A DNA stretch of 64,000 bases from Eukaryota sp. TZLM1-RC (Eukaryota > Protista > Metamonada: BaSk clade): contig JAUPSS010000004.1 in assembly GCA_040285825.1 (NCBI GenBank), forward strand, positions 248,001-312,000, in the 5' to 3' direction. The notes beneath the pieces were generated by a model. That model searched no databases. It was given only the letters and a program-made list of their open reading frames with translations, and was not told where the DNA came from. Shown piece after piece: positions 2,881-62,943 of the stretch. Every line of letters starts with the position of its first letter. Within the stretch, counting starts at the first letter, position 1. Position numbers and translations under genes: made by a program.

Positions 2881-3691
2881 TTTACATCTATCACGTTATA
2901 CCACATCATCACTCATTCAATTAGATTATCGTTTAATTTATTTTGATTATTCCAACCCGCTGTCATAAACTACCCGTTTTCTGTTCCGTAGTTTGTTACC
3001 AAGATAAATGCCAATATTGACTCAACATGTTACTGTTCGCCAACTGGATTGGATGTCGTATCTCGTCATGCAAAGATACAAGAAACCAATCTGAATCTCT
3101 GAACTCAACCATCATTTAAGAAAGGTTGAGAAGTCGTTGCACGTTGTAGTATTTTCTTACTATGTATACAATTATTTTTTCAATTATTCAATGTATGAAT
3201 TTTCCAGGCAAACACAAAACATTTGGTACTCTGATCTGAGCAAAATAGAATTGTGTTCTCTACTTCTAAGGGGATGTTGAAGATGGTTCCTTATGCATTC
3301 CGTTCTCTTCGAACTCACTGAGAGCGAATTTCATCTAGTTGTTGTGTTTTGGCAGAAATTGATTAGTATGATGTTGATTTAAAACTTGTTTAATGAATGA
3401 ATAAAGCTTTAAAATTTGAAAATTATTTGATTTCTCTTATGTCAAATAACACCATTAAATCAATCATAGATCTAATATAGTCTAATTCTCCTCTTTTAAA
3501 ACTTTATTATTTAATGTATCTTTATTATAAGAACCGTGAGAAATGGTTCTGGTTCTCTTTGAGATTTCGGATAAACAACCATCCATCAGAAGGAAGAAAC
3601 TGATCCCCATTCAGCGTGATCAGTGTTGGTTCCAGAAATCGATTTCCAAAGAGCAGGTATGAATGTGGCTGAAGAGGTGGTCATGATGAGG

Positions 3692-5322
3692 CAGAAAACC
3701 AATCAAAATTAACCTATCAATCATGACACACCTCCCTCCAAATGTGCATCTTTATCCTCACACAGGATATCCTTCGACAATTGGAGACGTCCACACTGTT
3801 CCAGGATCAAATCGTGCTCCTATTGATTATCTTAAGCGTTGTCAATGGGTCGTGTTAATCTTGATCTTCACAGCTGTGGCCTTCATCTCTGTCATGTTTC
3901 GATTTATCTTTACAAATCCTTCTCAACCCTTTCTAGACATTCTTTTCTTTATTCACCTATTGATAATCGCTTTCAGCACATTCTATTTTTACCATCGCCT
4001 TGGGACAGTGAATTTCAGAAAGCAGAGATTCTTCGGTACTGTCCTCTTATTTGTTTCTTGGTTCATTTGCTCTTTGTTTCCAATAGTAAATAGAATCAGT
4101 ATCATCTGGTTTATCCCCAGACTGTTTTATCCTTTCATGTACTTATTTCTCATTTTCATTTCATTTCTCATACCATTTGTGGCTCTTAAATTAGCGCTAA
4201 GAAAAGCAGCGGAAACTGATTTAATTCTTGGTTTAACTTATGGTTCTGTCTTTGGTTTTGCACTTGGAAATAGATGGCAGCTTCCATTTGAGGTCTATGG
4301 ATCTCCTCGTTTTTTCTCTTATCGTGATGATTATGTGGATGTGGACATACATGGGGCCCTTGTTTTCTCCTTGTTAGAGTTATCCACCCTGGCAGCTATG
4401 ATCGTAATGGGAATGGCTTTTGGACTTGCAGTAGTGATTAGAAGGAGGAAAATTGGAACCAGAAAACATTATATTAATTTGTTTCTCTTTTCTATAATTC
4501 CATCATGTTTGTTGTGCTTTGTTGTGGATGAGCTTCACTTCTACGTAGTTATTATTTACTGGTATGGTTATCAGTATGAACCCCGTGTGGGTGGGGGTTA
4601 TTACTTGACATCTTACTTTCTAATTGTTGTTTCCTGTGTTTATTGTTATTTTATGGGCATGAAACTCAAGCTTCTTATGCATAAGTTTCAAAATGAAGTA
4701 GAGGAAAGTATTACTACTAATCCCATGACTACTGCCAAAGTTTGAGTCATTGTATTGATTTTTATTGAGGCTGACAATAAATTTTTTGTAAAATTTTAAC
4801 GTGTTTGAAATATACCACCTCTACTGGTACATGTATTAACCGAGGCCACTTGTGAAGTTCTGTTTCACATCGGGTGCATAATTGACAATTCATGAATTTT
4901 AATATTTCGAAATAATGTCTTTTCTATAAACACATAATTGCAGAAATTCATAAAAGCGATTTGTTTTAAGATTCATTAGACAGTACTAATGAGACAAGAA
5001 ATCAATCAGAGGAAAACAGGTGTTAATAAAGAAATAGAAGATAACTAATAATTATTACTATTGAATATTAACAGCGACTATTACATTATTGATGTAATTA
5101 GTTTTTTGCAATTGTATTTCAATACCGCTTTCACAAAGAACATTAGTGGTTTTCGAACGAAATCATAAAAATAACGAGGGCTGTGATTAAGGCCCTTTGG
5201 ACCTATTTAATTGAAACTGTTTTGCACTAGCATGTTACGAATTTGATGCGTCATAGAAAAGTAAGGACTCGTGGCAGTATATAATACATGGCTTGATCAT
5301 TGTTTCATTTCCAAAAAGGCAA
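3692..5322 (+). repeat. Segmental duplication with ~24128-25793 (8-TM gene plus ~580 bp 3' flank)
   Basis: 3' flanks nearly identical by eye (gtcattgtattgatttttattgaggc ... ggcttgatcattgtttcatttcc). Confidence 0.92.
3723..4745 (+). CDS. Uncharacterised ~8-TM membrane protein, paralog 1
   Basis: 340-aa ORF, about 8 hydrophobic segments; paralog at 24154-25215 with same start and identical C-terminus; AATAAA-like signal after stop. Confidence 0.88.
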   Translation: MTHLPPNVHLYPHTGYPSTIGDVHTVPGSNRAPIDYLKRCQWVVLILIFTAVAFISVMFRFIFTNPSQPFLDILFFIHLLIIAFSTFYFYHRLGTVNFRKQRFFGTVLLFVSWFICSLFPIVNRISIIWFIPRLFYPFMYLFLIFISFLIPFVALKLALRKAAETDLILGLTYGSVFGFALGNRWQLPFEVYGSPRFFSYRDDYVDVDIHGALVFSLLELSTLAAMIVMGMAFGLAVVIRRRKIGTRKHYINLFLFSIIPSCLLCFVVDELHFYVVIIYWYGYQYEPRVGGGYYLTSYFLIVVSCVYCYFMGMKLKLLMHKFQNEVEESITTNPMTTAKV

Positions 5323-6634: not shown

Positions 6635-9600
6635 TTACAACAAAATTTTCGTGGGAACAAACCTTGTTTTTGTGTCACCAACTCCCAACTGTCCTTCAGT
6701 GTTACTTCCCCAGCCAAATAATTCCCCCTCTCCATAAGCAAAAGCATGAGAAAATCCGGCACTGATATGATCAATATTTTCAAGTCCTATTAGTTCTGGC
6801 GTGTTAATTTTCTCCAAAGCTTGACCTAAACCAAGCCTTCCATCTTTATTTGAGCCCCACATGTAGACCTTCCTGTCCGCAGTCAAAGCCATTGAAAATT
6901 TTCCTCCACAAGCAATAGCCTGTATTTTTGGTAAAGATTCAACTGGAATTGGGCGATTTCTACTCTGATTGGTCCCATTACCAAGTTGTCCTTCTGAATT
7001 CAACCCCCAGCAGTAAACTTTTCCTTGCTTATTCAAAGCTATAAAATGATCAAAACCAGCAGCAACAGAGGAAGCCATAAAATCAGGAATCTTGGTGAAA
7101 TTTTTGTTTCTGTATGTGATAACAGATCCGTCCTTATCAAGGAGGATCAAGTTATCAAATTTACAATCAAAATCGACAATGAAATTTTCAATATCCAAAA
7201 CAGTTTTACGTTCATCATTTCCTACTTTGATTACTTCACCAGTCTTTGTTAAAAAGAACGAACAATACCTTCCAGCAGTTACCTTGATAATATCATGGAG
7301 ATCTTGTATGTGGGTGGGTCTACAATAAGACTTTGTGAGCAACCATTTGTTCTTTGGTAAATTTAGCTGGTTTTCATCGTTGTTACCAAAGCCATAAACT
7401 CGTTTGTCAAGACCAATTGCGAAACTATGGAAATGTCCAACTGAAAGTTGAGTACATTCAAAATTTTCAATAAGCGTGGGGTCATGTCTATCAAGCTTAT
7501 CACCATTTCCTAATTGACCAAAATAATTGCTTCCAAACATGAAAATTTCAGTGCCTTTGAGTAGACCACTGAACTTTGATGCTACAAGAGTGATTTTTGG
7601 GAAAACGACCTTCCTTGTTTCAGCTTTAACTACTGGAGATTCAATTTCTTTATCAGAACTAGATACAAATTCAAGGTCCAGATCTGAGTCTTCTAAATCT
7701 GTGTCATGGACAACGGCTGAGGAAACAGATAGATGGTCGGAATTTTTCGAATTCTCGACTGGTAACTCAGCAAGAACCTTGAATCTTCTTTCAAGGACAT
7801 TTAAAACTTTGACTTTCCGCTCCACCAAGGAAGTAGGTGTGTAATGATGCTGCTCAATCACCTCAAAAACTGATTTTAATTTGTTCGCTAGGCCTAAAGT
7901 ATAACATGATTCTAATAACTGTATAATTGTACCATAAAGCTCTAAAATCTGATCTTTCTTTTGTTCAACAAAACTTTTGTCAATTAGGGACAATCCAAAG
8001 GTACATAAAACTCTACTATTCAAAGTAAGACACTCTATGGGATCAGTTTTGTATCTAAAAGCAAGTAAAACATCAACAACTTCACTAACGGAGGGTCTTT
8101 GATGATAATCAAACTTTAAACATTCATTAATGACATCAACCAAACAAACTGGAAGATTTTCATCAGCAAAGACAGTTGGAATATCTCCAGATCTGAGAGC
8201 ATTAACAACCAATTGGTCTCTATTCACAAGACCTTCAAAATCCTGCCAAATGGACTCCCTTGTCAGTACAAAAATGATAATTAAAGCAAAAGAAAACACA
8301 TCAATCTTATCAGTGTAGATAGTTTCGTCCAAAACTAGCTCAGGACTAGTCCAAAGAGGAGTCAAAACTCTATTACCATTAATAGACATTGAGACATTTG
8401 AATTACCAATATTTTTACCACTGCCCCAGTCAATTATAACAGGACAACCCTCTCTAAATAGAATGTTATCAGGTTTGAGATCTCGATGTAGAAGTTTACA
8501 TTCATGACAAGCAGCCAAGGCTTTTCCAATGTTGATCAAGACATCAAATTTCTTAGTTTCCTTATTTAAACTCGAAACTTTCTCTTTGAGAGTAAATTCT
8601 GATAAACGTTCCATAACAAGCCCATATCTTGGTCTATTGGTCTTGACCACACATGTTAGACCATATACTCTGGGGAGCGAAGGAACAGACGGTAAAGAGT
8701 TGATTATAGAATATTCTCTTGCTAATTCACGACTTATTCCATCAGAAGAGTAATACAGCTTAATGACGACATTACTCAACCTGTACTCTGCTTGGATGAC
8801 CTCCGACTGGCCACTGAACTGAGAGGTAGACCAATCGATATCTAATTCGTCTTCAGGAATAGATACCTTCATTTGTTCTTGACAATCATGATTGAGATCT
8901 TTCTGCAATTGCTTTCGTTGTTCATTGTACACTTTTTGTTGTTCCTCAATGGCTGCTTTAACGCTAGCCTCGGTGGCATTTGAAAGTTTTTGCTGAAGTT
9001 TTTTGAATTCCTGTCTCATTTCTTTAAGCAACATTTGTTTATGGCTTGCCAAAGCATTCTGAAATTCTTCATGATCAAAACCAACAATTGCTTCCACTTT
9101 TTGATTGGATAAAGTTGGTAATTTTTCAATTGTTTTGCCCGTGAAACCAATCAGTAATTCTGTTGAGAAATCATCCAAGAGTTTGTTACATTGTTCGAAT
9201 TCTCTTCGGAATTTCTCAATTGAAAACGCTTTTTTATACCACTTTGCATCATCATGCTGCATGATTACAGTGTTGATTCGTGTACATACTTCGGTAAAGT
9301 TGCGGAGAACGTCAACCAGTGCGGGACTTTCGGCGAGTTCTGGAGTGGTTTCGAGAGGGGAAAACGTGAGCTTGGTGAGACGAAGTACCCTGCCAACTAG
9401 CACACACGATTGCGCTTTATTAAGTTTGATTCCTTTGATTGTGGAGAAAAGAGTACCCAATGCTGATCCTACAGGACCAAAAAGTTTAGATTGGCGTGAA
9501 ATGAAATCAACAGTGTTGGACAATGGACCACTTATTGCAGTGATGAAAGACTTTGGTTCCCATTCAGCCAGATCAATGTTGATTTCAGAAATGGATTTGC

Positions 9601-9637
9601 ACAGAACAGGTATGAATGAGGTTGAAGAGGTAGTCAT
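6635..9637 (-). CDS. MLKL-NTD-like four-helix bundle + coiled linker + TKL-type protein kinase + RCC1 repeats
   Basis: 1000-aa intact ORF; kinase motifs VIK, HRDLKPDN, DWG, TSPE, DVFSF, RPS; RCC1 repeats (FGSNYFGQLG, WGLNSEGQLG, WGSNKDGRLG, WGSNTEGQLG); N-terminal NKAQSCVLVGRV...KWYKKAF...FEQCNKLLD pattern. Kinase and RCC1 calls are stronger than the 4HB call. Confidence 0.9.
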   Translation of the reverse strand: MTTSSTSFIPVLCKSISEINIDLAEWEPKSFITAISGPLSNTVDFISRQSKLFGPVGSALGTLFSTIKGIKLNKAQSCVLVGRVLRLTKLTFSPLETTPELAESPALVDVLRNFTEVCTRINTVIMQHDDAKWYKKAFSIEKFRREFEQCNKLLDDFSTELLIGFTGKTIEKLPTLSNQKVEAIVGFDHEEFQNALASHKQMLLKEMRQEFKKLQQKLSNATEASVKAAIEEQQKVYNEQRKQLQKDLNHDCQEQMKVSIPEDELDIDWSTSQFSGQSEVIQAEYRLSNVVIKLYYSSDGISRELAREYSIINSLPSVPSLPRVYGLTCVVKTNRPRYGLVMERLSEFTLKEKVSSLNKETKKFDVLINIGKALAACHECKLLHRDLKPDNILFREGCPVIIDWGSGKNIGNSNVSMSINGNRVLTPLWTSPELVLDETIYTDKIDVFSFALIIIFVLTRESIWQDFEGLVNRDQLVVNALRSGDIPTVFADENLPVCLVDVINECLKFDYHQRPSVSEVVDVLLAFRYKTDPIECLTLNSRVLCTFGLSLIDKSFVEQKKDQILELYGTIIQLLESCYTLGLANKLKSVFEVIEQHHYTPTSLVERKVKVLNVLERRFKVLAELPVENSKNSDHLSVSSAVVHDTDLEDSDLDLEFVSSSDKEIESPVVKAETRKVVFPKITLVASKFSGLLKGTEIFMFGSNYFGQLGNGDKLDRHDPTLIENFECTQLSVGHFHSFAIGLDKRVYGFGNNDENQLNLPKNKWLLTKSYCRPTHIQDLHDIIKVTAGRYCSFFLTKTGEVIKVGNDERKTVLDIENFIVDFDCKFDNLILLDKDGSVITYRNKNFTKIPDFMASSVAAGFDHFIALNKQGKVYCWGLNSEGQLGNGTNQSRNRPIPVESLPKIQAIACGGKFSMALTADRKVYMWGSNKDGRLGLGQALEKINTPELIGLENIDHISAGFSHAFAYGEGELFGWGSNTEGQLGVGDTKTRFVPTKILL

Positions 9638-10106
9638 GAAGTAGATTTATATCGACATTTGGGTCATTCTGAACTATTTGTTCCTCTTGACTTGATTCAT
9701 CAACTGACTTTTTCTTTCCTGTTCGGTTTCATTGTGAGAAACGATAGTCAATTTTTGATCAGTTTTTTTACTCTCAAAGAAGAATAAGTCACGTTTTCAA
9801 GGATCACATACAACAATTGATGATTGAAAAGTATCAACATCAACATCATCAATAAACAAATCACAAATAATGGCCTTGTTTTTTTTATTGTCAATTGATT
9901 CAAGAGCCCCAGTGTCTTAGTTGCCCTAATCTCAAAAAGTACGCAACGTATGTACTCCAAATTGTTCAACCCGAAAAGTCAATTTCACAATGGTATTAAG
10001 CAAAGCACGGGACATATTTTGATCCACTGGCTAATAATCACAGCCAATCCCTACATAGGTGAATGTCAAAATATGTTATAAATTTCAATTAGAAATGAAC
10101 GATTCA

Positions 10107-10729
10107 CTATCAATAAAAATTCTGTGGCCACATTCTTTCAGTCAGCACAACATATTTTGTATTTTCTAGAAGATAACTGTCCTGAGGTTATGAAAGGGTA
10201 ATCCCTTCGTTTAGTCCAGATGGCACCATGCTTTTTGAGATTGAATCACAAAACAGAACCCTATTTGACAGAGTAAAGATATCAGTGACCTGCTGAACAA
10301 CCCTTATCGGTTTTAATGAATTTATTTCTTTAACTATACCGTAATAGTTGCTGGTAAATAGGGTAAGTAGATATCTCCGGATTCCCCGTGATGATGTAGC
10401 ACTCGTTGAAAAGAACGGGTTTCTTTACTATTAAAAGCTCTTTTTCTCTCTATGCTTTTTTGGAATTTTTGTCCAACGTCATCAATACCACTCTTTCAAG
10501 TAATGATTCTTTGCTGTTCATGTTCTTCCAGAAATTCAGAAAAACATAACCTCGGCCAATTTAAGCGGAATTTGAGTCAAGTTGGGTCTCTAGAAATTAT
10601 GATTTTCATAACTTTTTAAAGGATGCATGTCCTTGTTTCTAGAACGTGGTGATCACTTGAGATATTTTGTGAAAAAAATGCTGTAGATAATGTGTGTTGT
10701 AACCTACAGTGTGGCGCAAGAAAAACAAC
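10107..10729 (+). mobile_element. 5' LTR (partial, ends CCTACA at 10708) plus PBS-like TGGCGC of a TGTAGG...CCTACA Ty3/Gypsy family
   Basis: Inverted copy at 15032-15653; CCTACA is the inverted repeat of TGTAGG that starts the PPT-preceded LTRs at 12552 and 49000; TGG begins at 10712. Confidence 0.7.
10340..10484 (+). mobile_element. Old solo LTR (TGTT...CATCA family) nested inside the larger LTR, TSD ATAC
   Basis: Shares gcactcgttgaa..gaacgggtttcttta with the 2436-2578 solo LTR; ATAC on both sides; terminal T changed to C. Confidence 0.75.
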
Positions 10730-11282
10730 GAACTGATGTTTGGGTCATCTATCAGCCCAAAATCAGATCCTGCTAACATTCTAGGAGGCATTTTCGATTT
10801 TGAATCTGATGAACCACTTTTGCAAGACCTCAAATTTAAGAATGAACGTCCTTAAAGAAGATGGGAAGAAGCAGAGCATCACCAACTATTAAATACACCC
10901 AGTCATACGAAAAACATAGATGAAAATACATTTAATATTGGTGACTATATTCTTTGAAAGATTAAACAACCTAAAAAATTGCAAGGATCTTGGTTAGGCC
11001 TGTATCTGGTTTTAGAAACGCCTTCCAACTCCACTTTATTAATAAAGAACCTGACGACTGGTGAACAAACTAAAATATCGAAAAGGGACTGTAAAATTCA
11101 CAACGCTGACGTTCCTAACGATGTCGATCTACTTAGGGCCATCGCAACCACAGATTCAGGTAAACATGTCATCGAGGAAATCCTTGACAAGTATAATACT
11201 GCTCAAGGACCCTTCTGTACTGTAAGATGGTTTGGTGGAGATACTACCGAGAAACCACTCCATTCTATCAGATATTCAGAAG

Positions 11283-12385
11283 TGATGCCGTTAGGCAGAT
11301 GAACACACGAAGGAGAGAGAGAAATCTGTTGTTTATTAATAAAACTGATTCATAAATGAGTATCACGTCATCAGTCGAAATACAAAGAAACCTACTAATT
11401 CAATTTGAGTTCAACAACAACACTACTTTTTCCCACTTTTCTGAGGACAAATACAGTACTGGCTCAATAGAGGGAAGATATGGGGTTTGTTAAACTCTTT
11501 GGTGCATCGTTTGTGTGACACAAATAATTTACCTCATGTTTGATTTTAGATGGACAATCGCGGGAGATGTGTCCAGGCTTGTGGCACTTGAAGCACGATT
11601 GATTTTTTAAATCCTGAGAGCGCCAAGAGGACCTCGTTTTAGTGCCAGCCGTACGTTCCACATCATTCACTGAGGTTTTGAAACCACGAGTCCATGAAGC
11701 AACCCTAGAGCAGTCCAACAGCTCATCAGTAGTGGTTTCGACAAGAGAGTGAAGATCTGGGAATACATCATCTCGAATTCTCGCTAGTAGAGAACGTTGA
11801 AGACCTACGGGAAGAATTCCTCTGGCAAATCGATTCAGAAAAGCTGTGTCTGGTAACTTCAGTCCGGAAGCCCTACTCTTTACCTGGAGGAAACGTCGCA
11901 GGTAACAGGACATACGTTCTCGGACGTCACCAATACGGACATCAAGCTTCAGTTCTGACATAGCCAGACTAAAATCTTCGTACGTGGCGAACGATACGAC
12001 AGATTGAAGATGTCTAAGAAGAACATCGTCACTGGAAGAGACGTCGGATTTCTGGAGAGATAGGGACTCTAACAGAAAAGAATCGACCAAGAGTCTTGCT
12101 GGAACAAGCTCTTTCTTAGAAGTCACAGAAGAATAGATCTTCCACTCTTGTAGGAACAAGAGAACACTTTCAACTTTCATGGAAGAAAGAGACGGGAGGT
12201 TGACAGAAGGAACAGTCATCTGAAATAAGAAGGGCCAATAATTATTGATGCCGTTAGGCAGATGAACACACGAAGGAGAGAGAGAAATCTGTTGTTTATT
12301 AATAAAACTGATTCATAAATGAGTATCACGTCATCAGTCGAAATACAAAGAAACCTACTAATTCAATTTGAGTTCAACAACAACA
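11283..12385 (-). mobile_element. Gag-only miniature LTR retroelement, 1103 bp, identical 140-bp LTRs (11283-11422, 12246-12385), TSD GAAG
   Basis: LTRs identical, TG...CA; GAAG at 11279-11282 and 12386-12389; minus-strand PPT agaaaagtgggaaaaagtag next to the 3' LTR. Confidence 0.95.
11464..12219 (-). CDS. gag: Retrotransposon Gag with CCHC zinc knuckle
   Basis: 251-aa intact ORF, CFKCHKPGHISRDC; fills the space between the two LTRs. Confidence 0.92.
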   Translation of the reverse strand: MTVPSVNLPSLSSMKVESVLLFLQEWKIYSSVTSKKELVPARLLVDSFLLESLSLQKSDVSSSDDVLLRHLQSVVSFATYEDFSLAMSELKLDVRIGDVRERMSCYLRRFLQVKSRASGLKLPDTAFLNRFARGILPVGLQRSLLARIRDDVFPDLHSLVETTTDELLDCSRVASWTRGFKTSVNDVERTAGTKTRSSWRSQDLKNQSCFKCHKPGHISRDCPSKIKHEVNYLCHTNDAPKSLTNPISSLY

Positions 12386-15031: not shown

Positions 15032-15653
15032 GTTGTTTTTCTTGTACCACACTGTAGGTTACCACACACATTATCTACAGCATTTTCTTCACAAAATATT
15101 TCTAGTGATCACCGCGATCTAGAAACAAGGATATGCATCCTTTTAAAACGTTATGAAAATCATAATTTCAAGAGACCCAACTTGACTCAAATTCCGCTTA
15201 GATTGGCCGAGGTTATGTTTTTCTGGATTTCTGGAACAACATGAACAGCAAAGAATCACCATTTGAAAGAGTGGTATTGATGACGTTGGGCAAAAATTCC
15301 AAACAAGCATAGAGAGAAAAAGAGCTTTTATTAGTGAAGATACCCGTTCTTTAATGAGTGCCACATCATCACGGGGAATCCGCAGATATCTACTTACCCT
15401 ATTTATCAGCAACTATTACGGTATAGTTAAAGAAATAAATTCATTAAAACCGATAAGGGTTGTTCAGCAGGTCACTGATATTTTTACTCTGTCAAATAGA
15501 GTTCTGCCTGTTTATTCAATCTCAAAAAGCATGGAGCCAACTAAACAAAAGGAAGGGAGTGTCTTTTAATAACCTCAGGACAGTTATCTTTTAGAAAGGA
15601 CAAGATATGTTGTGCTGATTGACAGTTTGTGGCTACAGATTGTTTATTGATAG
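15032..15653 (-). mobile_element. Second LTR+PBS copy, inverted relative to 10107-10729, with the same nested solo LTR (15278-15420, TSD GTAT)
   Basis: Reverse-complement match over ~620 bp; TGTAGG at 15053. Confidence 0.8.
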
Positions 15654-15899
15654 AAAATTGTTGTATTGTGGACAAAAACAGTGCTTTTCTCCTCAGGGGG
15701 ACTACACTTTCCAAAGGAAATGCTATTCTTTTCGAAGAAAAAATTACAATCTTTTGTAGGAGGACTCTCCTGGTGAGGGGATTGTTATTGTCCTGGCCGA
15801 CTGAGCCATTAATTAATGGTGCTTTAAGTTACAGTCACTGAATAGAGATAAGATTATTTACTAAATTCACCGGTCCTTATAAGGGCCATCAGAAGTGAA

Positions 15900-28152: not shown

Positions 28153-28879
28153 TTATTGCCATTGTTGTTGTTGACCAGGGAATCCACCTTGTTGAGGTTG
28201 TTGACCAGGGAATCCACCTTGTTGAGGTTGTTGACCAGGGAATCCACCTTGTTGAGGTTGTTGACCAGGGAATCCACCTTGTTGAGGTTGTTGACCAGGG
28301 AATCCACCTTGTTGAGGTTGTTGACCAGGGAATCCACCTTGTTGAGGATGCTGCCATTGTTGTTGTTGTTGACCAGAATAACCGCCTTGTTGTTGACCAG
28401 GAAAGCCTCCAGATTGCATACCACTAGATTGGAGGTTCCAGGTTTGATTAGGAGCAGAGGAATTCTTGGTGTTCCAGAGATTGACGGGTTGATTTTCTTG
28501 CGCTTGATTGCGGGGCACATCCAAACACATCTGCTGGTTGGCTCTGACACAGATCTGACCATTTTGATTGACAGAGAAGATTTGGTTTTGCTTATTGTTA
28601 CCACGGTCCCAAAGTACAAGATTAGCTCCAGCACGGTCAATCTCGTTCTTTGCAACGTCCATAACTAGACCAGAAGCTTGGTGACGGATTGTACCATCAC
28701 GATCGATGTTCCATTGTTGACTAGAGTTAATATGAAAGCCACACAAACGAAGGATCGTTAGGACGGAGTTGCTGAGTGACAACACGAGCACCTTTTGGGT
28801 CGCGACCATGCTCTACGCCCAATACCCAGTTGTTACCTAATCCAGATATAATGTTTACGGGACCTTGATTGGGATGCAT
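28153..28879 (-). CDS. Ricin-B (beta-trefoil) lectin with C-terminal [10 protein letters not shown] repeats; two exons (28879-28749, 28720-28153)
   Basis: QxW motifs ([18 protein letters not shown]), LVMDV, MCLDV; splicing GT-AG 28748-28721 joins [22 protein letters not shown]...NDP in frame. Confidence 0.88.
28165..28410 (-). repeat. 30-bp coding tandem repeat (about 6 copies plus degenerate ones)
   Basis: ttgaccagggaatccaccttgttgaggttg repeated. Confidence 0.97.
28721..28748 (-). other. 28-nt spliceosomal intron
   Basis: gtttgtgtggctttcatattaactctag: GT-AG, branch-like TTAAC next to the 3' site, restores the reading frame. Confidence 0.8.
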
Positions 28880-30680: not shown

Positions 30681-30772
30681 GAAAGTTGAAAACAGGAGTG
30701 AATTTCACAGTATGTTACAACATTTCACCTAGGGAAACACCTTGACGCTTTCATCATATACCACTATCACCA

Positions 30773-31387
30773 ATGATTCCACTTCCCTTCACTCGTCCAT
30801 CATCACAAGAAAGGGCTAGATTTCCAGGTTATGGAGGCTATCTTCCTTCAAAAGCCGATGTCAAATCACCAGACAAAGATCCTGCTCTTACACATGGTCC
30901 TAAATACTCCGAGTCTCTTATCCCAAAATACCAAGGTTACATACCTGGTCTGCGGGAAACTTTTGGAAAGGGTTACACACAAGGAGCTGATCTGGCCAAA
31001 ACCACAATCCGCAAAGGTCCCACCATGGATGATACAGAAGCAGTCACTGTTCGTATAGACAGGTCTTCCATTTCTGACCCCTCACCTTCCCTTCTGCAAC
31101 CTACGTTCAAGGACAAGTGCCTGAAGGATAAGCTCTCCGTGCCGGGTTATGGTGGATTCATCCCCCAGAAGCATTTCCTTCACGGTAAGTCCAATAAGAG
31201 AATTATTGATGAAGCTGCGGAACTCAACAACAGCCTGAAAAGACCAATCAATTCAAATGAACCTTCCTCTCCGTACTCTCCACGGCCAGGGTCGTTGCCT
31301 GGGTATTGTGGTCATGTTCCAGGTCTTAACACTGCTGTAGGTACCAGTTTTGGTAAAGCTACTTGTAATTTAAATAAATTTAATTGA
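30773..31387 (+). CDS. FAM166/CIMIP2-like ciliary microtubule inner protein
   Basis: Four PxY repeats (PGYGGYLP, PKYQGYIPG, PGYGGFIP, PGYCGHVPG), three followed by FGK/HGK/GTSFG. Confidence 0.8.
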   Translation: MIPLPFTRPSSQERARFPGYGGYLPSKADVKSPDKDPALTHGPKYSESLIPKYQGYIPGLRETFGKGYTQGADLAKTTIRKGPTMDDTEAVTVRIDRSSISDPSPSLLQPTFKDKCLKDKLSVPGYGGFIPQKHFLHGKSNKRIIDEAAELNNSLKRPINSNEPSSPYSPRPGSLPGYCGHVPGLNTAVGTSFGKATCNLNKFN

Positions 31388-38696: not shown

Positions 38697-39797
38697 GGCA
38701 CAATCTTATAATTCACCTTTACGTAGAGCTTAAGAAGCGAAAATTATAAGTACACAGAAAAGTCAATAATCTAAATTCCAACTCACATACTCAATACCTT
38801 CTTTGTCCTTTTGCTATTTCTTTATTTGGAACCTCAAGTAAAACTGCGTTATTTTTTATGGACGATTTTTCATACATTGTCAAAAACAGAACTGAAAGAA
38901 TATTTGACCGAACCTTTTGGCAAAATAGAATTGTATTTTCTATTTTTAAAGGCATAGCCTTGTTTCTAGCTCGTTGTTATCACTAGGAAGATTTAATAAA
39001 GAAAATGCTCTAGGTAAATTTTCAATGGTAGATGTGGAGTTTGAGGACATTGATTTTTAGTTTTTAACAATTTCTTTTGAATAAAATAAGTTTCCAAAAA
39101 TATTGTTATCAATCCACATTATTTCTGTTAAATCGAGAATAAATAGAGAATTTGAAATTAAACTTTTTCTGCAATTTCAACAAAAGCCTTTTGCACCAAC
39201 AAGGAAGTAAATTAGAAGCAAAGACTATCGTTAGAATATTTGTCCTGAAGCCATACTAGAATTTCTCGTGAACACAACTAATAGTTTCTAAATCAACACC
39301 ATCAAGATTTCCACAATGAATGGCCCATCCATTTGTCAGTTTTTGTCATTTTTCTATTGTTAGTAACATAGTCATCAAGGTTTGTGTTGAATTGAAACAA
39401 GATAGAATTAGAACAAGACAGTGGACTAGTTAGTTAAGGTGTAATGCTTGCAGTGACAGCGGTACAATCCTTCCGTTGCAACATCTACAACAACTATCTG
39501 TTCAAGGTCAAATCTTTGCCTTACGATTTGAGATGTATTCACATGTCACCAATCAATCAGCACCAGAATGATGATCTTTCTAGCACTCTAGCTCACCTTC
39601 TCATGTCATCTAAGGAGACAATCTCCATTGTGGACTATGTTGAACGCAACTATCCCTGTCCAGATCCTACTTATCAACCGTTCGATCTCAACTGTGATGA
39701 TCCTAAAGAGTTCCGTATCTCCCCTTTGAGTATGTCGCTTTGATCATCGCTTATCCCAGAACTGGCTTTATGGACATCAATACTGATTCTGATCATT

Positions 39798-42700
39798 GTG
39801 ACAATAATAACGTTTTCAACACCTTCTGTTCCTCTCTCTGGTACTATTGTTGATAGGCGAACAGACCTTCCCATCGAATCTGCCACTGTTACACTGTTCA
39901 TTCAAAACGAGAAACCTCTGACCACACAAACCAACAGTAAAGGAAGGTTCATTTTCTCCCATGTCAAAGTAGGAAAGTACCAGCTCCTTTTGGATCATCC
40001 GAGCTATTATAATCAGTCATTACAGGTAGGTGCCGTCAGCAATGATGAAAACAGTATACGTCTTGCTCTAGACCCCTTCTATTACGTGTATACTGGTGTA
40101 GTTGCTGATGCGGACTCTGATCATCTCTTGCAACATGTTCATGTCACACTAACCACTGATGCAGAACAGGTCGAAACAACAACCAACTCTCAAGGGGTTT
40201 TCATGACTGAATTATGGTCTGGAATCTACCACATAACACTCCAACTCAATGGCTACCACGAACTTTCCCAATCGTTGGCTCTTGCTTCCTCCACATCCCC
40301 TATTCCTTTTAGATTATCCAAGATCTTGTTTGATATAAACATAGTTGTTGTTGACTCTCTCTCTAAACTCCCCATTCCCAACACAGTCGTGGTTCTCGAG
40401 TCTTTTGACGTTTTTGCCATAACCGACCAATTAGGGCAGGTCTTATTCAATAATCAGCGTCCCTTAGTGTATTTCATTTCACTTTTTCATCATTTGTACC
40501 ACAATGCCACGCTTTCCGTAACTCATCAAAGTTCGGATGTTGTTGAAACCATGCTTGTGCCAATTACTGAACAAGTTTCGTTTTCAGTTTTTGATTCTTC
40601 CACTTCCACGCCAATTGAAGGAGTGACTGTGAAACTTGACTCTGTTCAGGAAGTATCTTCACCAGAAGGCATTGTACAGTTTGAAGGGGTTCGTTTAGAT
40701 ACTTACAACGTTGAATTTGTTCATGAATTATTTCATCCCCAAAATGTCTCTCTTGAAGTCGTGCCGTACTTCAACTCTCTCACCATATTCCTTGACGCTG
40801 TTCTGGTCAACGTGTCGGTAGCTGTTATTGATCATAATGGAGACCATGTTCCCAATGCTGAAGTGTCGAGCATGAATCAAATCACTTCTACTAACTCTGT
40901 TGGTATGTTTCAGCTGACCGGACTGAGGTTGAGTTCCAACACAAATGTTAATGTTGATCACCCCAAGTTTCATCAAAACAGCTTTTCATTGAATGTAGAA
41001 GTACCCAATCCCGAATCACCATTGTACATTGTCGAGTTGCTTCCAATTACCTTTGATTTGAAAGTTCTTGTTTATGATCAAACTAACAGTCTTCCAGTAA
41101 CAAGTGCCACAGCTGACCTTTCAATCGATGGAGCTTCAATTCAAGTTGGTGTAGGTAATAATAAGGGTATTATTGATTTAAAAGAGCTATTGGTTGCTGA
41201 TTACTCGATCATTTTGAATTCGATAGGTTATTACTCTGGTTCGTTTGAACTTGGAAGATTGAACTCAAAACAAACAATTGAATTTTCATTAGAACCAAAG
41301 CTGTTCACTGTGTCTGGAAATGCTGGTGGAATTAAAGATGTAGAAGTAAGTCTAAAAGGCACTGAATGGTCAGCAACAACTGATGAAGAAGGAGAGTTCT
41401 CCATCCAACACGTTCGCTATGGAACCTATACCATTGTTTACCAACATTCTGATTATGAAGTTGTGGAGCAGGAAAATGTTGATGTACATGGAGATCTTGC
41501 ACTGGACGGTATTCAACTCGCAATCAAAACTTTTTCTGTTCAATTAACCATTTACGATCAAGAATCCTTGATTTTACTGTCAGGTGTGAGCGTTCAACTT
41601 ACTGATTCTGCTGAAGCGGTCATCACAGACTCATCAAATGACCGTGGGGTTGTTTTATTTGAAGATGTTGACCTTGGACAGTACACAATTCTACTGGAAA
41701 GTACTGGATTTGAAAGCAAAACTCTAACTGAAATCGACATTCAAGCTGATCATTTCAGTAACATTTACCTTGAATCAAAGCTGTTCACTGTGTCTGGAAA
41801 TGCTGGTGGTATTGAACATGTGAAAGTAAGTCTAAAAGGTACTGAAAGGTCAACAACATCTAATGAAGATGGAGACTTTTCCATCGATAATGTTCGCTAT
41901 GGAACCTATACCATTGTTTACCAACATTCTGACTATGAAGTTTTGGAGCAGGAAGATGTTGATGTACATGGAGATCTTGCACTGGACGTTATTCAACTCG
42001 CAATCAAAACCTTTTCTGTTCAATTAACCATTTACGATCAAGAATCCTTGATTTTACTGTCAGGTGTGAGCGTTCAACTTACTGATTCTGCTGAAGCGGT
42101 CATCACAGACTCATCAAATGACCGTGGGGTTGTTTTATTTGAAGATGTTGACCTTGGACAGTACACAATTCTACTAGAAAGTACCGGATTTGAAAGCAAA
42201 ACTCTATCTGAAATCGACATTCAAGCTGATTATTTCAGTAACATTTACCTTGAATCAAAGCTATTCACTGTGTCTGGAAATGCTGGTGGTATTGAACATG
42301 TGAAAGTAAGTCTAAAAGGTACTGAAAGGTCAACAACATCTAATGAAGATGGAGACTTTTCCTTCCAACACGTTCGCTATGGAACCTATACCATTGTTTA
42401 CCAACATTCTGACTATGAAGTTTTGGAGCAGGAAGATGTTGATGTACATGGAGATCTTGCACTGGACGTTATTCAACTCGCAATCAAAACCTTTTTGTTC
42501 AATTAACCATTTACGATCAAGAATCCTTGATTTTACTGTCAGGTGTGAGCGTTCAACTTACTGATTCTGCTGAAGCGGTCATCACAGACTCATCAAATGA
42601 CCGTGGGGTTGTTTTATTTGAAGACGTTGACCTTGGACAGTACACAATTCTACTAGAAAGTACTGGATTTGAAAGCAAAACTCTAACTGAAATCGACATT

Positions 42701-45598
42701 CAAGCTGATCATTTCAGTAACATTTACCTTGAATCAAAGCTGTTCACTGTGTCTGGAAATGCTGGTGGTATTGAACATGTGAAAGTAAGTCTAAAAGGTA
42801 CTGAAAGGTCAACAACATCTAATGAAGATGGAGACTTTTCCATCGATAATGTTCGCTATGGAACCTATACCATTGTTTACCAACATTCTGATTATGAAGT
42901 TTTGGAGCAGGAAAATGTTGACGTACATGGGGATCTTGCACTGGACGGTATTCAACTCGCAATCAAAACTTTTTCTGTTCAATTAACCATTTACGATCAA
43001 GAATCCTTGATTTTACTGTCAGGTGTGAGCGTTCAACTTACTGATTCTGCTGAAGCGGTCATCACAGACTCATCAAATGACCGTGGGGTTGTTTTATTTG
43101 AAGATGTTGACCTTGGACAGTACACAATTCTACTAGAAAGTACTGGATTTGAAAGCAAAACTCTATCTGAAATCGACATTCAAGCTGATCATTTCAGTAA
43201 CATTTACCTTGAATCAAAGCTATTCACTGTGTCTGGAAATGCTGGTGGAATTGAAGATGTAGAAGTAAGTCTAAAAGGCACTGAATGGTCAGCAACAACT
43301 GATGAAGAAGGAGAGTTCTCCATCAAACACGTTCGCTATGGAACCTATACCATTGTTTACCAACATTCTGATTATGAAGTTTTGGAGCAGGAAAATGTTG
43401 ACGTACATGGAGATCTTGCACTGGACGGTATTCAACTCGCAATCAAAACTTTTTCTGTTCAATTAACCATTTACGATCAAGAATCCTTGATTTTACTGTC
43501 AGGTGTGAGCGTTCAACTTACTGATTCTGCTGAAGCGGTCATCACAGACTCATCAAATGACCGTGGGGTTGTTTTATTTGAAGATGTTGACCTTGGACAG
43601 TACACAATTCTACTGGAAAGTACTGGATTTGAAAGCAAAACTATAACTGAAATCGACATTCAAGCTGATCATTTCAGTAACATTTACCTTGAATCAAAGC
43701 TGTTCACTGTGTCTGGAAATGCTGGTGGTATTGAACATGTGAAAGTAAGTCTAAAAGGTACTGAAAGGTCAACAACATCTAATGAAGATGGAGACTTTTC
43801 CATCGATAATGTTCGCTATGGAACCTATACCATTGTTTACCAACATTCTGACTATGAAGTTTTGGAGCAGGAAGATGTTGATGTACATGGAGATCTTGCA
43901 CTGGACGTTATTCAACTCGCAATCAAAACCTTTTCTGTTCAATTAACCATTTACGATCAAGAATCCTTGATTTTACTGTCAGGTGTGAGCGTTCAACTTA
44001 CTGATTCTGCTGAAGCGGTCATCACAGACTCATCAAATGACCGTGGGGTTGTTTTATTTGAAGATGTTGACCTTGGACAGTACACAATTCTACTAGAAAG
44101 TACCGGATTTGAAAGCAAAACTCTATCTGAAATCGACATTCAAGCTGATTATTTCAGTAACATTTACCTTGAATCAAAGCTATTCACTGTGTCTGGAAAT
44201 GCTGGTGGTATTGAACATGTGAAAGTAAGTCTAAAAGGTACTGAAAGGTCAACAACATCTAATGAAGATGGAGACTTTTCCTTCCAACACGTTCGCTATG
44301 GAACCTATACCATTGTTTACCAACATTCTGACTATGAAGTTTTGGAGCAGGAAGATGTTGATGTACATGGAGATCTTGCACTGGACGTTATTCAACTCGC
44401 AATCAAAACCTTTTTTGTTCAATTAACCATTTACGATCAAGAATCCTTGATTTTACTGTCAGGTGTGAGCGTTCAACTTACTGATTCTGCTGAAGCGGTC
44501 ATCACAGACTCATCAAATGACCGTGGGGTTGTTTTATTTGAAGATGTTGACCTTGGACAGTACACAATTCTACTAGTAAGTACTGGATTTGAAAGCAAAA
44601 CTCTAACTGAAATCGACATTCAAGCTGATCATTTCAGTAACATTTACCTTGAATCAAAGCTGTTCACTGTGTCTGGAAATGCTGGTGGTATTGAACATGT
44701 GAAAGTAAGTCTAAAAGGTACTGAAAGGTCAACAACATCTAATGAAGATGGAGACTTTTCCATCGATAATGTTCGCTATGGAACCTATACCATTGTTTAC
44801 CAACATTCTGATTATGAAGTTTTGGAGCAGGAAAATGTTGACGTACATGGAGATCTTGCACTGGACGGTATTCAACTCGCAATCAAAACTTTTTCTGTTC
44901 AATTAACCGTTTACGATCAAGAATCCTTGATTTTACTGTCAGGTGTGAGCGTTCAACTTACTGATTCTGCTGAAGCGGTCATCACAGACCCATCAAATGA
45001 CCGTGGGGTTGTTTTATTTGAAGATGTTGACCTTGGACAGTACACAATTCTACTAGAAAGCACTGGATTTGAAAGCAAAACTCTATCTGAAATCGACATT
45101 CAAGCTGATCATTTCAGTAACATTTACCTTGAATCAAAGCTATTCACTGTGTCTGGAAATGCTGGTGGAATTGAAGATGTAGAAGTAAGTCTAAAAGGCA
45201 CTGAATGGTCAGCAACAACTGATGAAGAAGGAGAGTTCTCCATCCAACACGTTCGCTATGGAACCTATACCATTGTTTACCAACATTCTGATTATGAAGT
45301 TTTGGAGCAGGAAAATTTTGACGTACATGATGACGTCACAGATCTGACTGTCACATTGAATTTGCATTCATTCAATGTCAATGGCTATGTGGTTAACGAG
45401 AATGGAGACCGGCTGGAAGATGTTAAAGTCCAAGTAGATTCCTTGGAAGAGGCCACAACTGATAGTTCAGGATTCTTTACTCTTGCTCTGTCCAATGGTG
45501 CATATGATGTGACGTTTGAATTCAATGAAAGCACAATCACTCAAACAATAACGATTGATGACCAAGATGTTTTTAAACTTTTCATTTTTGATTTGTAG
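39798..45598 (+). CDS. Giant carboxypeptidase-regulatory-like (CarboxypepD_reg/PEGA-like) repeat protein; frameshift at ~42492; true 5' end probably ~39317
   Basis: Repeated beta-sandwich pattern (G.V.D...PI..A.V.L...T.S.G.F...G.Y.I...GY); ORFs of 902 and 1023 aa joined by T5 vs T6; signal-peptide-like and intron-like sequence at 39317-39455 is disrupted. Confidence 0.8.
41298..45330 (+). repeat. 480-bp (160-aa) tandem repeat, ~8.4 units, with a 1920-bp higher-order period
   Basis: Unit starts near 41298, 41778, 42258, 42737, 43217, 43697, 44177, 44657, 45137. Confidence 0.97.
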
Positions 45599-45646: not shown

Positions 45647-47614
45647 TCAACAACAACAACAAAATAATCTAAACAAGCAATTTCGCTTTGGAGGCAAATC
45701 AATGACTTCCTTTTCAGGCTTGATAGGACCCGGTTGGGGGACAGGACGTGGTTGGGGAGCAGGACCTGGTGGAGGGTTAGGACCTGGTTGGGGAACAGGA
45801 CGTGATTGGGGGACAGGATTGACGGTTATGATTGGTTCTCTTCTTGCCAAGTAGAGACTTTTCAGAGAGCAACACGCTTCTTGACGTAGATTCTCATCAA
45901 TGTTGGGATTATCAACAACTCTTTTAGCATTTTTGAAGAATCCATTGCCACTTAAAAACAACTCATACTTTTGTTTTAAACACTCAGCATCTGACACATC
46001 ATTTACAGACTCCAAAAGTCGGTTAGCAAGGGGAATAAGAAAATTACATCGACTTTTCTTGAGTTCATTTGCCAGGGAAACCAATTGGGAGGAAGAAACG
46101 ACTTGTTTTTCTGGTTGCATCCGAATCTCATCACTGAATTCTGATAGTGTTTGATTCCACAAAGCGACTCTAGCAGTTTGCTTCTTTTGTGCCACAAGAA
46201 AGCTCGTGGACAATAGATCAGGATTCGAGTCTTGGGCAATATTGGCAAAGTAATCTCTCAAATCATTAGTTGAATTGCGTTCACAATTAAACCATAGAAA
46301 AGCATCAATTGTTTCAAAGTAAGGATTCTTGAGCAGACTCTTGAGCTTGGTTAATTTTGAATCAGAAACAGAACAATTTCTTTCACAAAGGATATTTCTG
46401 ACCAAGTCAAATCTACCATTTATCAAATACACTTTTAAAGTGATTTCTTCTAGTTTGGCTTTATCCGATCCATTTACATAGTGGAGATAAGAACATCCTT
46501 CATGTACAAAGACAAAAGCTTCAGCAAACATCATTCGGTTGTAGTAAACATTGGCGATATCAAAGAAGTTCTGGACACAACTTTTTTCCATCTCTGCAGT
46601 AACTTGAAAACCTTGAACCTTGTCAAGCAGACACATCGCAGATCCAAGACTCGCCCCATTAGATAAGCGACAGCGGCGAGCAGGAAAGTTTGTGGAGTCA
46701 AGATAAGTGGCGATAAGATACTGAAATGTGGCCAGGTTTTGGCCAATGTGTTCTTTCTGAAAGGTGAGCAAACGAGAGAATGTTGCCTGAAGTGATGAAC
46801 TTCCAATAAGGAATTTCAAATCAGAAAGTCCTTTGGGTTGAAGGTCGTTAAGAGTGCTTATCAGATCGTTCCGAATGGTTTCTAACTTACGGGGAATATT
46901 GTTGACGACGTCGTGGCAACCTTCATAAAGAGCAACCCAGAAAATAGCATTGTCCGGAGTATCAGCAAATAAGGAATTCATAGACCCACCACTCTTGATC
47001 ATTGGTCTGATTCTTTCGATTTGATGCTTGATATATAGAAATAGAGCTTTCTCAGCAAGATAAAAGACAATGTCATCAGGAGGTTGATCATCAAAAGCGT
47101 TTCTTAATTCTGGATATTGATTCCATTCAGATAAATGGTTGGAGAACACGTTGACGAACTTTTGTGCTTCCTCTTTGGAGGCAAGGAAGTGAGGAAAGTG
47201 GTAAATGAGCAATAGGAGCACAAAGTACTGAACATGAGGATTCTTATACTGACGCAGCAACAACGAGTGATCAATCATGTGGTCAGCATTGATGGGGTGA
47301 TTCTTCTCTCTGGAATGCCTGATGGGAAGGTATTCCTTGTAAAAGAGGTACAGCGCTTCTTCATGGCCCTTCTTTGCTGCTTGTGTGAAGTAATCCAGGG
47401 CGAGCATAAGATCAGGCTGTTCCTGCTTAAGAAGAACCGTTGCAGCAGTGTACAAAAAATCCACATTACCTCCTTCTGCCACAGTCACCAGAGCACGTGT
47501 ACCATCAGCATTGTGTGGTCCGAGTGACTCATACTTTGCGATTAGCTGTGCTTTTGAAGGAGCTATTGGCTGGTCCTGAAGGACAAGCTGGACATCATTC
47601 GTGCTGATTGACAT
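45647..47614 (-). CDS. Helical protein with Sel1-like repeat, Pro-rich tail and C-terminal CCCC
   Basis: 655-aa ORF; LALDYFTQAAKKGHEEALY; PVPQPGP repeats; ends CLFRLFCCCC. Confidence 0.85.
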   Translation of the reverse strand: MSISTNDVQLVLQDQPIAPSKAQLIAKYESLGPHNADGTRALVTVAEGGNVDFLYTAATVLLKQEQPDLMLALDYFTQAAKKGHEEALYLFYKEYLPIRHSREKNHPINADHMIDHSLLLRQYKNPHVQYFVLLLLIYHFPHFLASKEEAQKFVNVFSNHLSEWNQYPELRNAFDDQPPDDIVFYLAEKALFLYIKHQIERIRPMIKSGGSMNSLFADTPDNAIFWVALYEGCHDVVNNIPRKLETIRNDLISTLNDLQPKGLSDLKFLIGSSSLQATFSRLLTFQKEHIGQNLATFQYLIATYLDSTNFPARRCRLSNGASLGSAMCLLDKVQGFQVTAEMEKSCVQNFFDIANVYYNRMMFAEAFVFVHEGCSYLHYVNGSDKAKLEEITLKVYLINGRFDLVRNILCERNCSVSDSKLTKLKSLLKNPYFETIDAFLWFNCERNSTNDLRDYFANIAQDSNPDLLSTSFLVAQKKQTARVALWNQTLSEFSDEIRMQPEKQVVSSSQLVSLANELKKSRCNFLIPLANRLLESVNDVSDAECLKQKYELFLSGNGFFKNAKRVVDNPNIDENLRQEACCSLKSLYLARREPIITVNPVPQSRPVPQPGPNPPPGPAPQPRPVPQPGPIKPEKEVIDLPPKRNCLFRLFCCCC

Positions 47615-48029
47615 TGATTTGAAATTGATAAAGTTCTGTCATGTTTGGTTTTAAGGTGAGATGACAAGTTGGACATGTTCTTATGTTTCTCTACGTCAAA
47701 TGTTGATCTCTGCAACGTACTATTGTACACCTGGGATGAAATCTCAACTTGATATACATCGACTGTTGTGTTGTTGTACAGTTCGATTGAAATGGGATAC
47801 TATCAAACAATCCAAAATTCTTATTATCGTTAATATCGTTCTTCACAATTTAAAAACTTGCTTTGGTTTGAGGGTTGAGTTCCTGGAGTTCCTTGAGACT
47901 TGCTCGTGAAAATATTTTAAACCTGATGGATGATGAATTATCAGATATAAGTCGAGAACATGATATTGAAAACAATGATCGAGGCGAAAACTAATATCCA
48001 AATCCATTTGTGTACCTTTAATTCAATAA

Positions 48030-62855: not shown

Positions 62856-62943
62856 TTGTTGTTTTAGGGCTATGAGAACTGGAGGTTCCTACAATGAAAA
62901 TTCAATCTCATTCTCCAAACGATTTTTTACACAATATCTCAAC
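62856..62943. promoter_or_regulatory. Probable bidirectional promoter between BRR2 and RPB11
   Basis: Head-to-head genes 88 bp apart; no motif identified. Confidence 0.5.

Follow-up and report, generated by a model that had tools for sequence, protein, structure and literature searches.

An MLKL-like kinase with a C-terminal RCC1 propeller in a skoliomonad protist: a candidate one-chain defence switch from a family with exchangeable add-on domains

MLKL proteins of animals (4BTF, 4M68, 6UX8) and plants (AtMLKLs, 6KA4) contain a four-helix bundle (4HB), a brace and a kinase-fold domain in this order. They are pseudokinases with a reduced Gly-loop and are switched by other proteins. A related core is found in wheat/Aegilops Pm13 (MLKL-K), which has an MLKL_NTD 4HB, a brace and a catalytically intact Ser/Thr kinase (PMC11297308, PMC10951266). 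In fungi, HELL domains are fused to kinases or pseudokinases, and necroptosis-like death is framed as an animal, plant and fungal phenomenon (PMC12881547). Viral copies of MLKL have been described as well (PMC10583209). A survey of 67 protists, in which MLKL was sought by sequence homology only, did not find homologs of the mammalian necroptosis regulators (PMC7539657). The gene considered here, P0001, lies in a 64,000-nucleotide stretch of DNA (the window; contig JAUPSS010000004.1, positions 248,001 to 312,000) of Eukaryota sp. TZLM1-RC. Together with GEM-RC1 and TZLM3-RCL, this isolate is described as a skoliomonad metamonad, one of a group of anaerobic bacterivorous flagellates (PMC11603281, PMC11316075). 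P0001 appears to represent a lineage-expanded family in which an MLKL-type 4HB, a brace and an intact kinase are combined with an exchangeable add-on, and we tentatively read it as a one-chain defence switch.

The features of P0001 are collected in Table 1. An in-frame stop codon is located three codons 5' of its ATG, and 9640-11400 shows no evidence of an additional 5' exon that would encode a signal peptide or a membrane span. Pfam places Pkinase at aa 302-521 (E 3.4e-27) and RCC1 in five C-terminal stretches (E 3.2e-56; WD40_RLD, E 1.9e-61). The best solved match of the propeller is UVR8 (E 2.7e-51), and judging from the repeats counted by eye the propeller appears complete. The linker in front of it has 13 D/E and 10 S in 57 residues. 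NCBIfam returned generic kinase matches only, and no NACHT or NB-ARC ATPase was detected with Pfam at E 0.1. The initial annotation, made from the sequence alone, had described a helical N-terminus, a linker, a kinase and a C-terminal RCC1 propeller. This order is correct and the propeller is real, but two elements were overlooked: the cap helices preceding the bundle and the helical domain behind the kinase.

Table 1. Coordinates of P0001, its domains and a nearby remnant of a second copy
Feature	Position	Strand	Residues and details	Basis
Whole gene P0001	6635..9637	(-)	1,000 aa; single ATG-to-stop frame, without introns	
N-terminal cap	9491..9625	(-)	aa 5-49; helices 5-17 and 28-49, preceding the 4HB	model, alignment
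MLKL-type 4HB	9122..9490	(-)	aa 50-172; helices 54-68, 74-97, 105-127, 133-172	
Brace and Q/E/K-rich coiled-coil-like linker	8864..9121	(-)	aa 173-258	model helix 178-214, sequence, profile match spanning full-length mouse MLKL
Protein kinase domain	8054..8863	(-)	aa 259-528; catalytic residues kept, reduced Gly-loop, DWG replacing DFG	
Conserved helical domain	7748..8053	(-)	aa 529-630; HEAT/ARM-like, without specific family	
Acidic Ser-rich linker	7601..7747	(-)	aa 631-679; point where relatives diverge	alignments
RCC1-type propeller	6638..7600	(-)	aa 680-1000; seven repeats, two shortened	repeats by eye
Remnant of a second P0001 5' end	3589..3686	(-)	98 nt	81% nucleotide identity

P0001 shares the order of 4HB, brace and kinase fold and the reduced Gly-loop with animal and plant MLKLs, on which its modelled 4HB can be superposed, but exceeds them by about 45 residues at the N-terminus and 470 at the C-terminus, and its family has retained the HRD and DWG motifs. 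Pm13, the closest known protein, compared by description and not by sequence, resembles P0001 in having an intact kinase and is reported to be an independent fusion with a kinase of separate origin; it is only 476 aa long with nothing after the kinase, whereas P0001 has the cap helices, the HEAT-like domain and an exchangeable add-on and comes from a unicellular lineage. The nearest outside homologs of the bundle are bdelloid rotifer and fungal MLKL-like/HeLo-like kinases, which lack the cap helices; neither an RCC1 add-on nor a comparable range of add-ons was found in the part of the rotifer and fungal MLKL-like literature covered (PMC12881547). Kinases of Basidiomycota and Mucoromycota, some of them long, are among the Atlas proteins resembling aa 1-630. 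The arrangement of effector, switch and variable repeat in one chain resembles all-in-one fungal NLRs with a HeLo/MLKL-like effector and plant CC-R NLRs (PMC9815663, PMC12881547), but the switch of P0001 is a kinase and not a NACHT/NB-ARC ATPase. NEK8 and NEK9 also have a kinase followed by an RCC1 propeller (PMC11974183). In P0001, unlike these, the kinase starts only at aa 259, after a 258-residue MLKL-type N-terminus, it does not look NEK-like in the searches made, and the RCC1 domain is not conserved in the family.

Judged by sequence, the N-terminus of P0001 is a 4HB of the MLKL_N family, as the initial annotation had proposed. The Pfam MLKL_N match covers aa 63-163 with E 1.8e-5 and 24.8 bits, just below the cut-off of 27 bits. 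Among 20 family proteins, six pass this cut-off, 11 score below it (E <= 0.007) and three have no match. A profile of aa 1-200 run against 1.84 billion proteins gave 19 matches: 15 family members and four outside proteins, namely two from bdelloid rotifers, one from Blastocladiella (a blastocladian fungus) and one from a metagenome. All four pass MLKL_N. A profile built from these four scores P0001 aa 68-169 at 51.4 bits, with 300 shuffled sequences reaching 4.1 bits at most and reversed P0001 reaching 0.2 bits; this control is partly circular, since the four sequences had been found with the family profile. A feature search of the Atlas with aa 1-215 gave top matches scoring 0.90-0.92, and in two of the best three clusters 30-36% of the members have MLKL_N.

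The structure of aa 1-215 was predicted confidently as four helices (predicted local distance difference test, pLDDT, 85). This model superposes with the N-terminal domain (NTD) of human MLKL 6UX8 (Z 8.9, root-mean-square deviation (rmsd) 3.0, 117 residues aligned), AtMLKL3 6KA4 (Z 8.7, rmsd 2.6, 125 aligned) and 4BTF (Z 8.6, rmsd 3.2, 100 aligned). The first residues of all three align from model residue 50-51, and the top identities within the best 50 rows of the fold search belong to 4BTF (20%) and 6UX8 (19%). In a second-look alignment the MLKL NTD entries are found in the middle of the list (Z 7.6-8.1). The modelled bundle is consistent with MLKL, with the fold search alone not being decisive. 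A homotrimer prediction for aa 5-254 scored 0.11.

A bdelloid MLKL NTD kills human cells (PMC11476962). Eight of the 11 residues needed for this killing, mapped via the rotifer proxy P0017, are identical (R83, F147, N151, L154, L161) or similar (V56, L63, I163) in P0001. The bundle is 64-69% identical to its counterparts in the four closest relatives, the kinase 59-68%.

The kinase of P0001 has K293, E308, HRD 384-386, K388, N391 and DWG 403-405, as well as SPE 431-433, D446 and R514; its Gly-loop, FSGQSEVI, contains a single Gly. The initial annotation was accurate in these respects. K, E, HRD, N and DWG are retained in 14 of 15 complete family kinases, and the Ser-rich activation loop, at aa 412-421 of P0001, is conserved. 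The kinase of P0001 is predicted to be active. Mouse MLKL occupies ranks 1 and 2 among 922 solved matches to the kinase (60.0 bits, with the next non-MLKL match at 49.8 bits), and a five-sequence family profile covers residues 19-464 of mouse MLKL 4BTF in one stretch, this being the first of 113 matches. The best-match rank of the MLKL kinase indicates likeness and is not a proof of orthology. Together with model helix 178-214, the match to 4BTF places the brace and the kinase-fold domain in the MLKL order. The top solved kinase matches are MLKL and TKL-type kinases. A grouping with NEK8/NEK9-type proteins, which the initial annotation had raised as the counter-hypothesis, found no support: NEK kinases are present neither in the best 60 of the 922 nor in the best 60 of the 113 solved matches, and no NEK name occurs among the Atlas matches listed.

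Two regions of P0001 have no counterpart in the MLKL description given in the initial annotation. The helices of aa 5-49, modelled at a pLDDT of about 90, are family-specific, as the alignment shows no equivalent in the four MLKL_N proteins from outside the family. A capping role is possible for them; removal of 17 N-terminal residues activates an echinoderm MLKL (PMC11932488), which relates to these helices by analogy only. The domain of aa 529-630 (model pLDDT 92) is preserved across the family, being 34-40% identical to the corresponding region of each of the four closest relatives. Fold searches with its model returned HEAT/ARM solenoids at Z 8-9 without a specific match, and Foldseek gave no match at E 0.001. 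The KEN nuclease fold, which follows the kinase in IRE1/RNase L, was considered for this position; it is not among the matches listed for aa 529-630, where HEAT/ARM solenoids fill the lists.

The family of P0001 was gathered by three homolog searches, one profile search and cluster look-ups, and the counts are lower bounds. It includes at least 20 distinct proteins and one isoform: the window protein, 11 proteins of Eukaryota sp. GEM-RC1, seven of TZLM1-RC and one of TZLM3-RCL. The common cassette corresponds to aa ~5-630 and is 52-58% identical between P0001 and its four closest relatives. Fifteen members are complete. The initial annotation had treated RCC1 as part of the architecture, but only P0001 has it at the C-terminus and 13 of the 15 lack it; RCC1 is one of about ten exchangeable add-ons. 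The other add-ons on the same cassette include leucine-rich repeats (LRRs), B-box, Sel1, a Rab-like GTPase and membrane spans.

LRR_6 was found in P0011, P0012 and P0024, LRR_4 in P0015, and a B-box in P0023 and, combined with membrane spans, in P0010. P0008 and P0021 combine a membrane span with a large unassigned region and additional spans, P0013 has one span and P0003 several. P0005 (TZLM1-RC, 1,254 aa) is a predicted type I receptor: a hydrophobic N-terminus, an ectodomain with RCC1 and one membrane span all precede the cassette, so that RCC1 would be extracellular and the MLKL-like cassette cytosolic. In P0025 (TZLM3-RCL, 1,261 aa) a Rab-like GTPase stands before the cassette and Sel1 repeats after it; its cassette is diverged, aligns from aa 12 and has no MLKL_N signal. 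P0009 has the N-terminal domain, a B-box and LRRs without a kinase. A second 4HB suspected at the start of P0015 was not supported (best E 0.22). The relatives are gene models, and single-copy fusions such as P0005, P0006 and P0025 may be merged predictions. A search for related loci confirmed none of 123 metagenome pattern matches, and none of 18 in viral contigs. The window itself contains a 663-aa frame (45647-47638, (-)) with a weak TPR match, which weakly matches the Sel1 repeats of P0025 (E 4e-4).

Add-ons vary across the cassette tree. LRR_6 and B-box are each confined to a strongly supported clade of their own, and since each of these clades spans two isolates, both fusions must be older than the split of the isolates. 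The RCC1 domains of P0001 and P0005 are located at opposite ends of the protein and share 27-33% identity over the longer alignments, which suggests that they were gained separately. P0001 and P0005 are not sisters in the best tree; the approximately unbiased (AU) test, made with 12 of the 15 rows (P0015, P0021 and P0025 were excluded), does not reject their grouping (p 0.064).

Four points can be considered established: the order of the domains, the kinship of the bundle to MLKL_N, the conservation of the catalytic residues and the range of different add-ons attached to a single cassette. As the relatives share the core and differ in the add-ons, we favour a one-chain sense-and-respond defence switch as the function of P0001 and regard it as quite possible, if short of probable. 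Binding of a trigger by the RCC1 propeller would lead the kinase to phosphorylate either itself or its partner in a pair of copies, and the 4HB, once released, would damage a membrane. By comparison with MLKL biology, the protein would be auto-inhibited at rest, possibly with the aid of the cap helices, and activation would involve brace-driven clustering and an attack of the bundle on the membrane. A sensing role is suggested by the types of the add-ons (LRR, RCC1, Sel1, B-box, ectodomains). Such a protein would combine the jobs of RIPK3 and MLKL in one chain, and its target could be either the membrane of its own cell or the food vacuole holding bacterial prey.

Several observations weigh against the defence switch reading. 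On the side of MLKL kinship, the MLKL_N score of P0001 itself remains below the Pfam cut-off. The MLKL entries rank 13, 15 and 17 in the fold search, below designed bundles, CAMP factor and CheA P1, and Z scores of 8.6-8.9 are common among helical bundles. Foldseek gave no match for the aa 1-215 model at E 0.001, and phmmer and a four-sequence profile of the N-terminus run against solved structures produced chance matches only, with MLKL not listed. The kinase lead of MLKL over LRRK2 is narrow as well (61.6 vs 57.7 bits with the family profile). As to function, most of the residues preserved from the rotifer protein occupy core positions and therefore indicate the fold and not killing. The position of rotifer C31 is Ser or Ala in the whole family, and C31S weakened killing by the rotifer protein (PMC11476962); rotifer T77-K78 is not preserved in P0001. 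P0011 has lost catalytic residues (HGD, GWG, without the activation loop), and P0002 and P0004 are bare cassettes without any add-on. The RCC1 domain of NEK8 serves localisation and partner binding (PMC11974183). Finally, neither the 4HB nor the 4HB-brace part of Pm13 kills, and killing requires the kinase (PMC11297308). Because of this last point, either the 4HB or the kinase may provide the output of the family.

The alternative that survives best follows from Pm13. P0001 could be a defence kinase that delivers the output through its kinase domain, with the 4HB serving as inhibitor or decoy. Once RCC1 or the 4HB has bound a trigger, the kinase would be set free, dimerise via the brace and phosphorylate downstream proteins. 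In Pm13, which shares this core, the brace-kinase part kills in a kinase-dependent manner while the 4HB does not (PMC11297308). The catalytic residues and the Ser-rich activation loop kept in nearly all complete members are in line with this, as are the possible burial of the bundle by the cap helices and the receptor-kinase-like, membrane-anchored layout of several relatives. However, conservation of the 4HB equals that of the kinase, and the nearest outside homologs include proteins of bdelloids, and one bdelloid MLKL NTD kills (PMC11476962). P0009, if its gene model is right, also speaks against a mere inhibitory bundle, since it indicates that the bundle can pair with sensor-type domains alone. 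We consider this alternative rather unlikely, though not negligible.

The MLKL-derived cassette could also have been recruited to cell regulation unrelated to immunity, such as flagella, trafficking or encystment, with the add-ons setting location or substrates. Modules such as a Rab-like GTPase, B-box and RCC1 are often used for scaffolding, NEK8 is sent to cilia by its RCC1 domain (PMC11974183), and no defence gene adjoins P0001 in the window. On the other hand, turnover of add-ons, the existence of truncated copies, the 5' remnant at a distance of 6 kb and the retroelement-rich setting would fit fast-evolving receptor families better than housekeeping kinases, and the tested 4HB relatives in the literature consulted act in cell death or immunity (PMC11297308, PMC12881547, PMC11476962). 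Non-immune signalling seems unlikely.

If the RCC1 part came from an assembly error or from a fusion that is recent and a dead end, with the 630-residue cassette being the actual working unit, this would account for the lack of a C-terminal RCC1 in all 14 other complete members and for the position of P0001 amid retroelement remains. Yet 3,000 bases of uninterrupted frame cross the junction, passing through a linker of typical low-complexity make-up, the relatives attach other domains at the same point, and the propeller appears complete. One low-depth DNA run contains exact pieces of P0001, including 7701-7971; no piece listed for this run spans the linker-RCC1 junction near 7600. We find this explanation very improbable. 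A NEK8/NEK9-type kinase with an incidental helical extension, which would explain the order of kinase and RCC1 (PMC11974183), is extremely improbable in view of the NEK-free lists of best solved matches and the absence of RCC1 from most complete members.

Returning to the defence switch, we speculate that an MLKL chassis has served skoliomonad-type protists as the base of an NLR-like family of immune receptors, in which a self-phosphorylating 4HB-kinase cassette is joined to exchangeable cytosolic and extracellular sensors. This broader proposal is doubtful at present. If it is true, a free-living unicellular organism whose mitochondria are extremely reduced would be capable of necroptosis-like lysis, and the family would provide a living model of the active-kinase state ancestral to the MLKL pseudokinase.

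Pm13 already has the core of 4HB, brace and active kinase, and fusions of HeLo-like domains to kinases have been noted in fungi (PMC12881547). A literature search covering mostly open-access main texts found no description of the P0001 family or of an MLKL-kinase-RCC1 protein, and the main text of PMC11316075 mentions neither MLKL nor kinase nor RCC1. The expansion of MLKL-like proteins in a metamonad lineage widens the range of this kind of protein to unicellular anaerobes. Active, degenerate, kinase-less, bare and sensor-fused members constitute a set of natural variants suited to asking which of the two, 4HB or kinase, provides the output. Work on Pm13 left this question open, and every domain of P0001 is amenable to heterologous expression.

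P0001 is surrounded by retroelement remains (gag zinc knuckle, reverse transcriptases, integrase), and no partner gene is evident in the window. The remnant of a second copy (Table 1) corresponds to codons 1-26 with 69% amino-acid identity, and its frame closes soon after. Together with the retroelement setting, it would fit duplication and shuffling. A 340-aa hydrophobic open reading frame (ORF) without a Pfam match, probably with multiple membrane spans, is located at 3723-4745 (+); its ATG lies 38 bases from that of the remnant, head to head. A gag-like zinc-knuckle ORF (11464-12312, (-)) is found between identical 140-nt direct repeats (11283-11422 and 12246-12385), and the segment 10098-10729 is repeated in inverted orientation at 15032-15662 with 88-94% identity.

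Further away, two frames of 920 and 1,051 aa at 39744-45598 (+), overlapping at 42443-42506, contain CarboxypepD_reg-type beta-sandwich repeats and may together encode a single giant surface protein, interrupted by a short intron or a frameshift. The product of 54220-55854 (+) has a BTB domain and, in its Gly-rich C-terminal region, weakly matches the ALK/LTK glycine-rich domain (E 0.051). Ordinary eukaryotic genes are represented by a Brr2-type Sec63 helicase (56946-62888, (-)), a ricin-B lectin domain protein (28153-28812, (-)) and a CMI2B-like ciliary microtubule inner protein (30746-31387, (+)).

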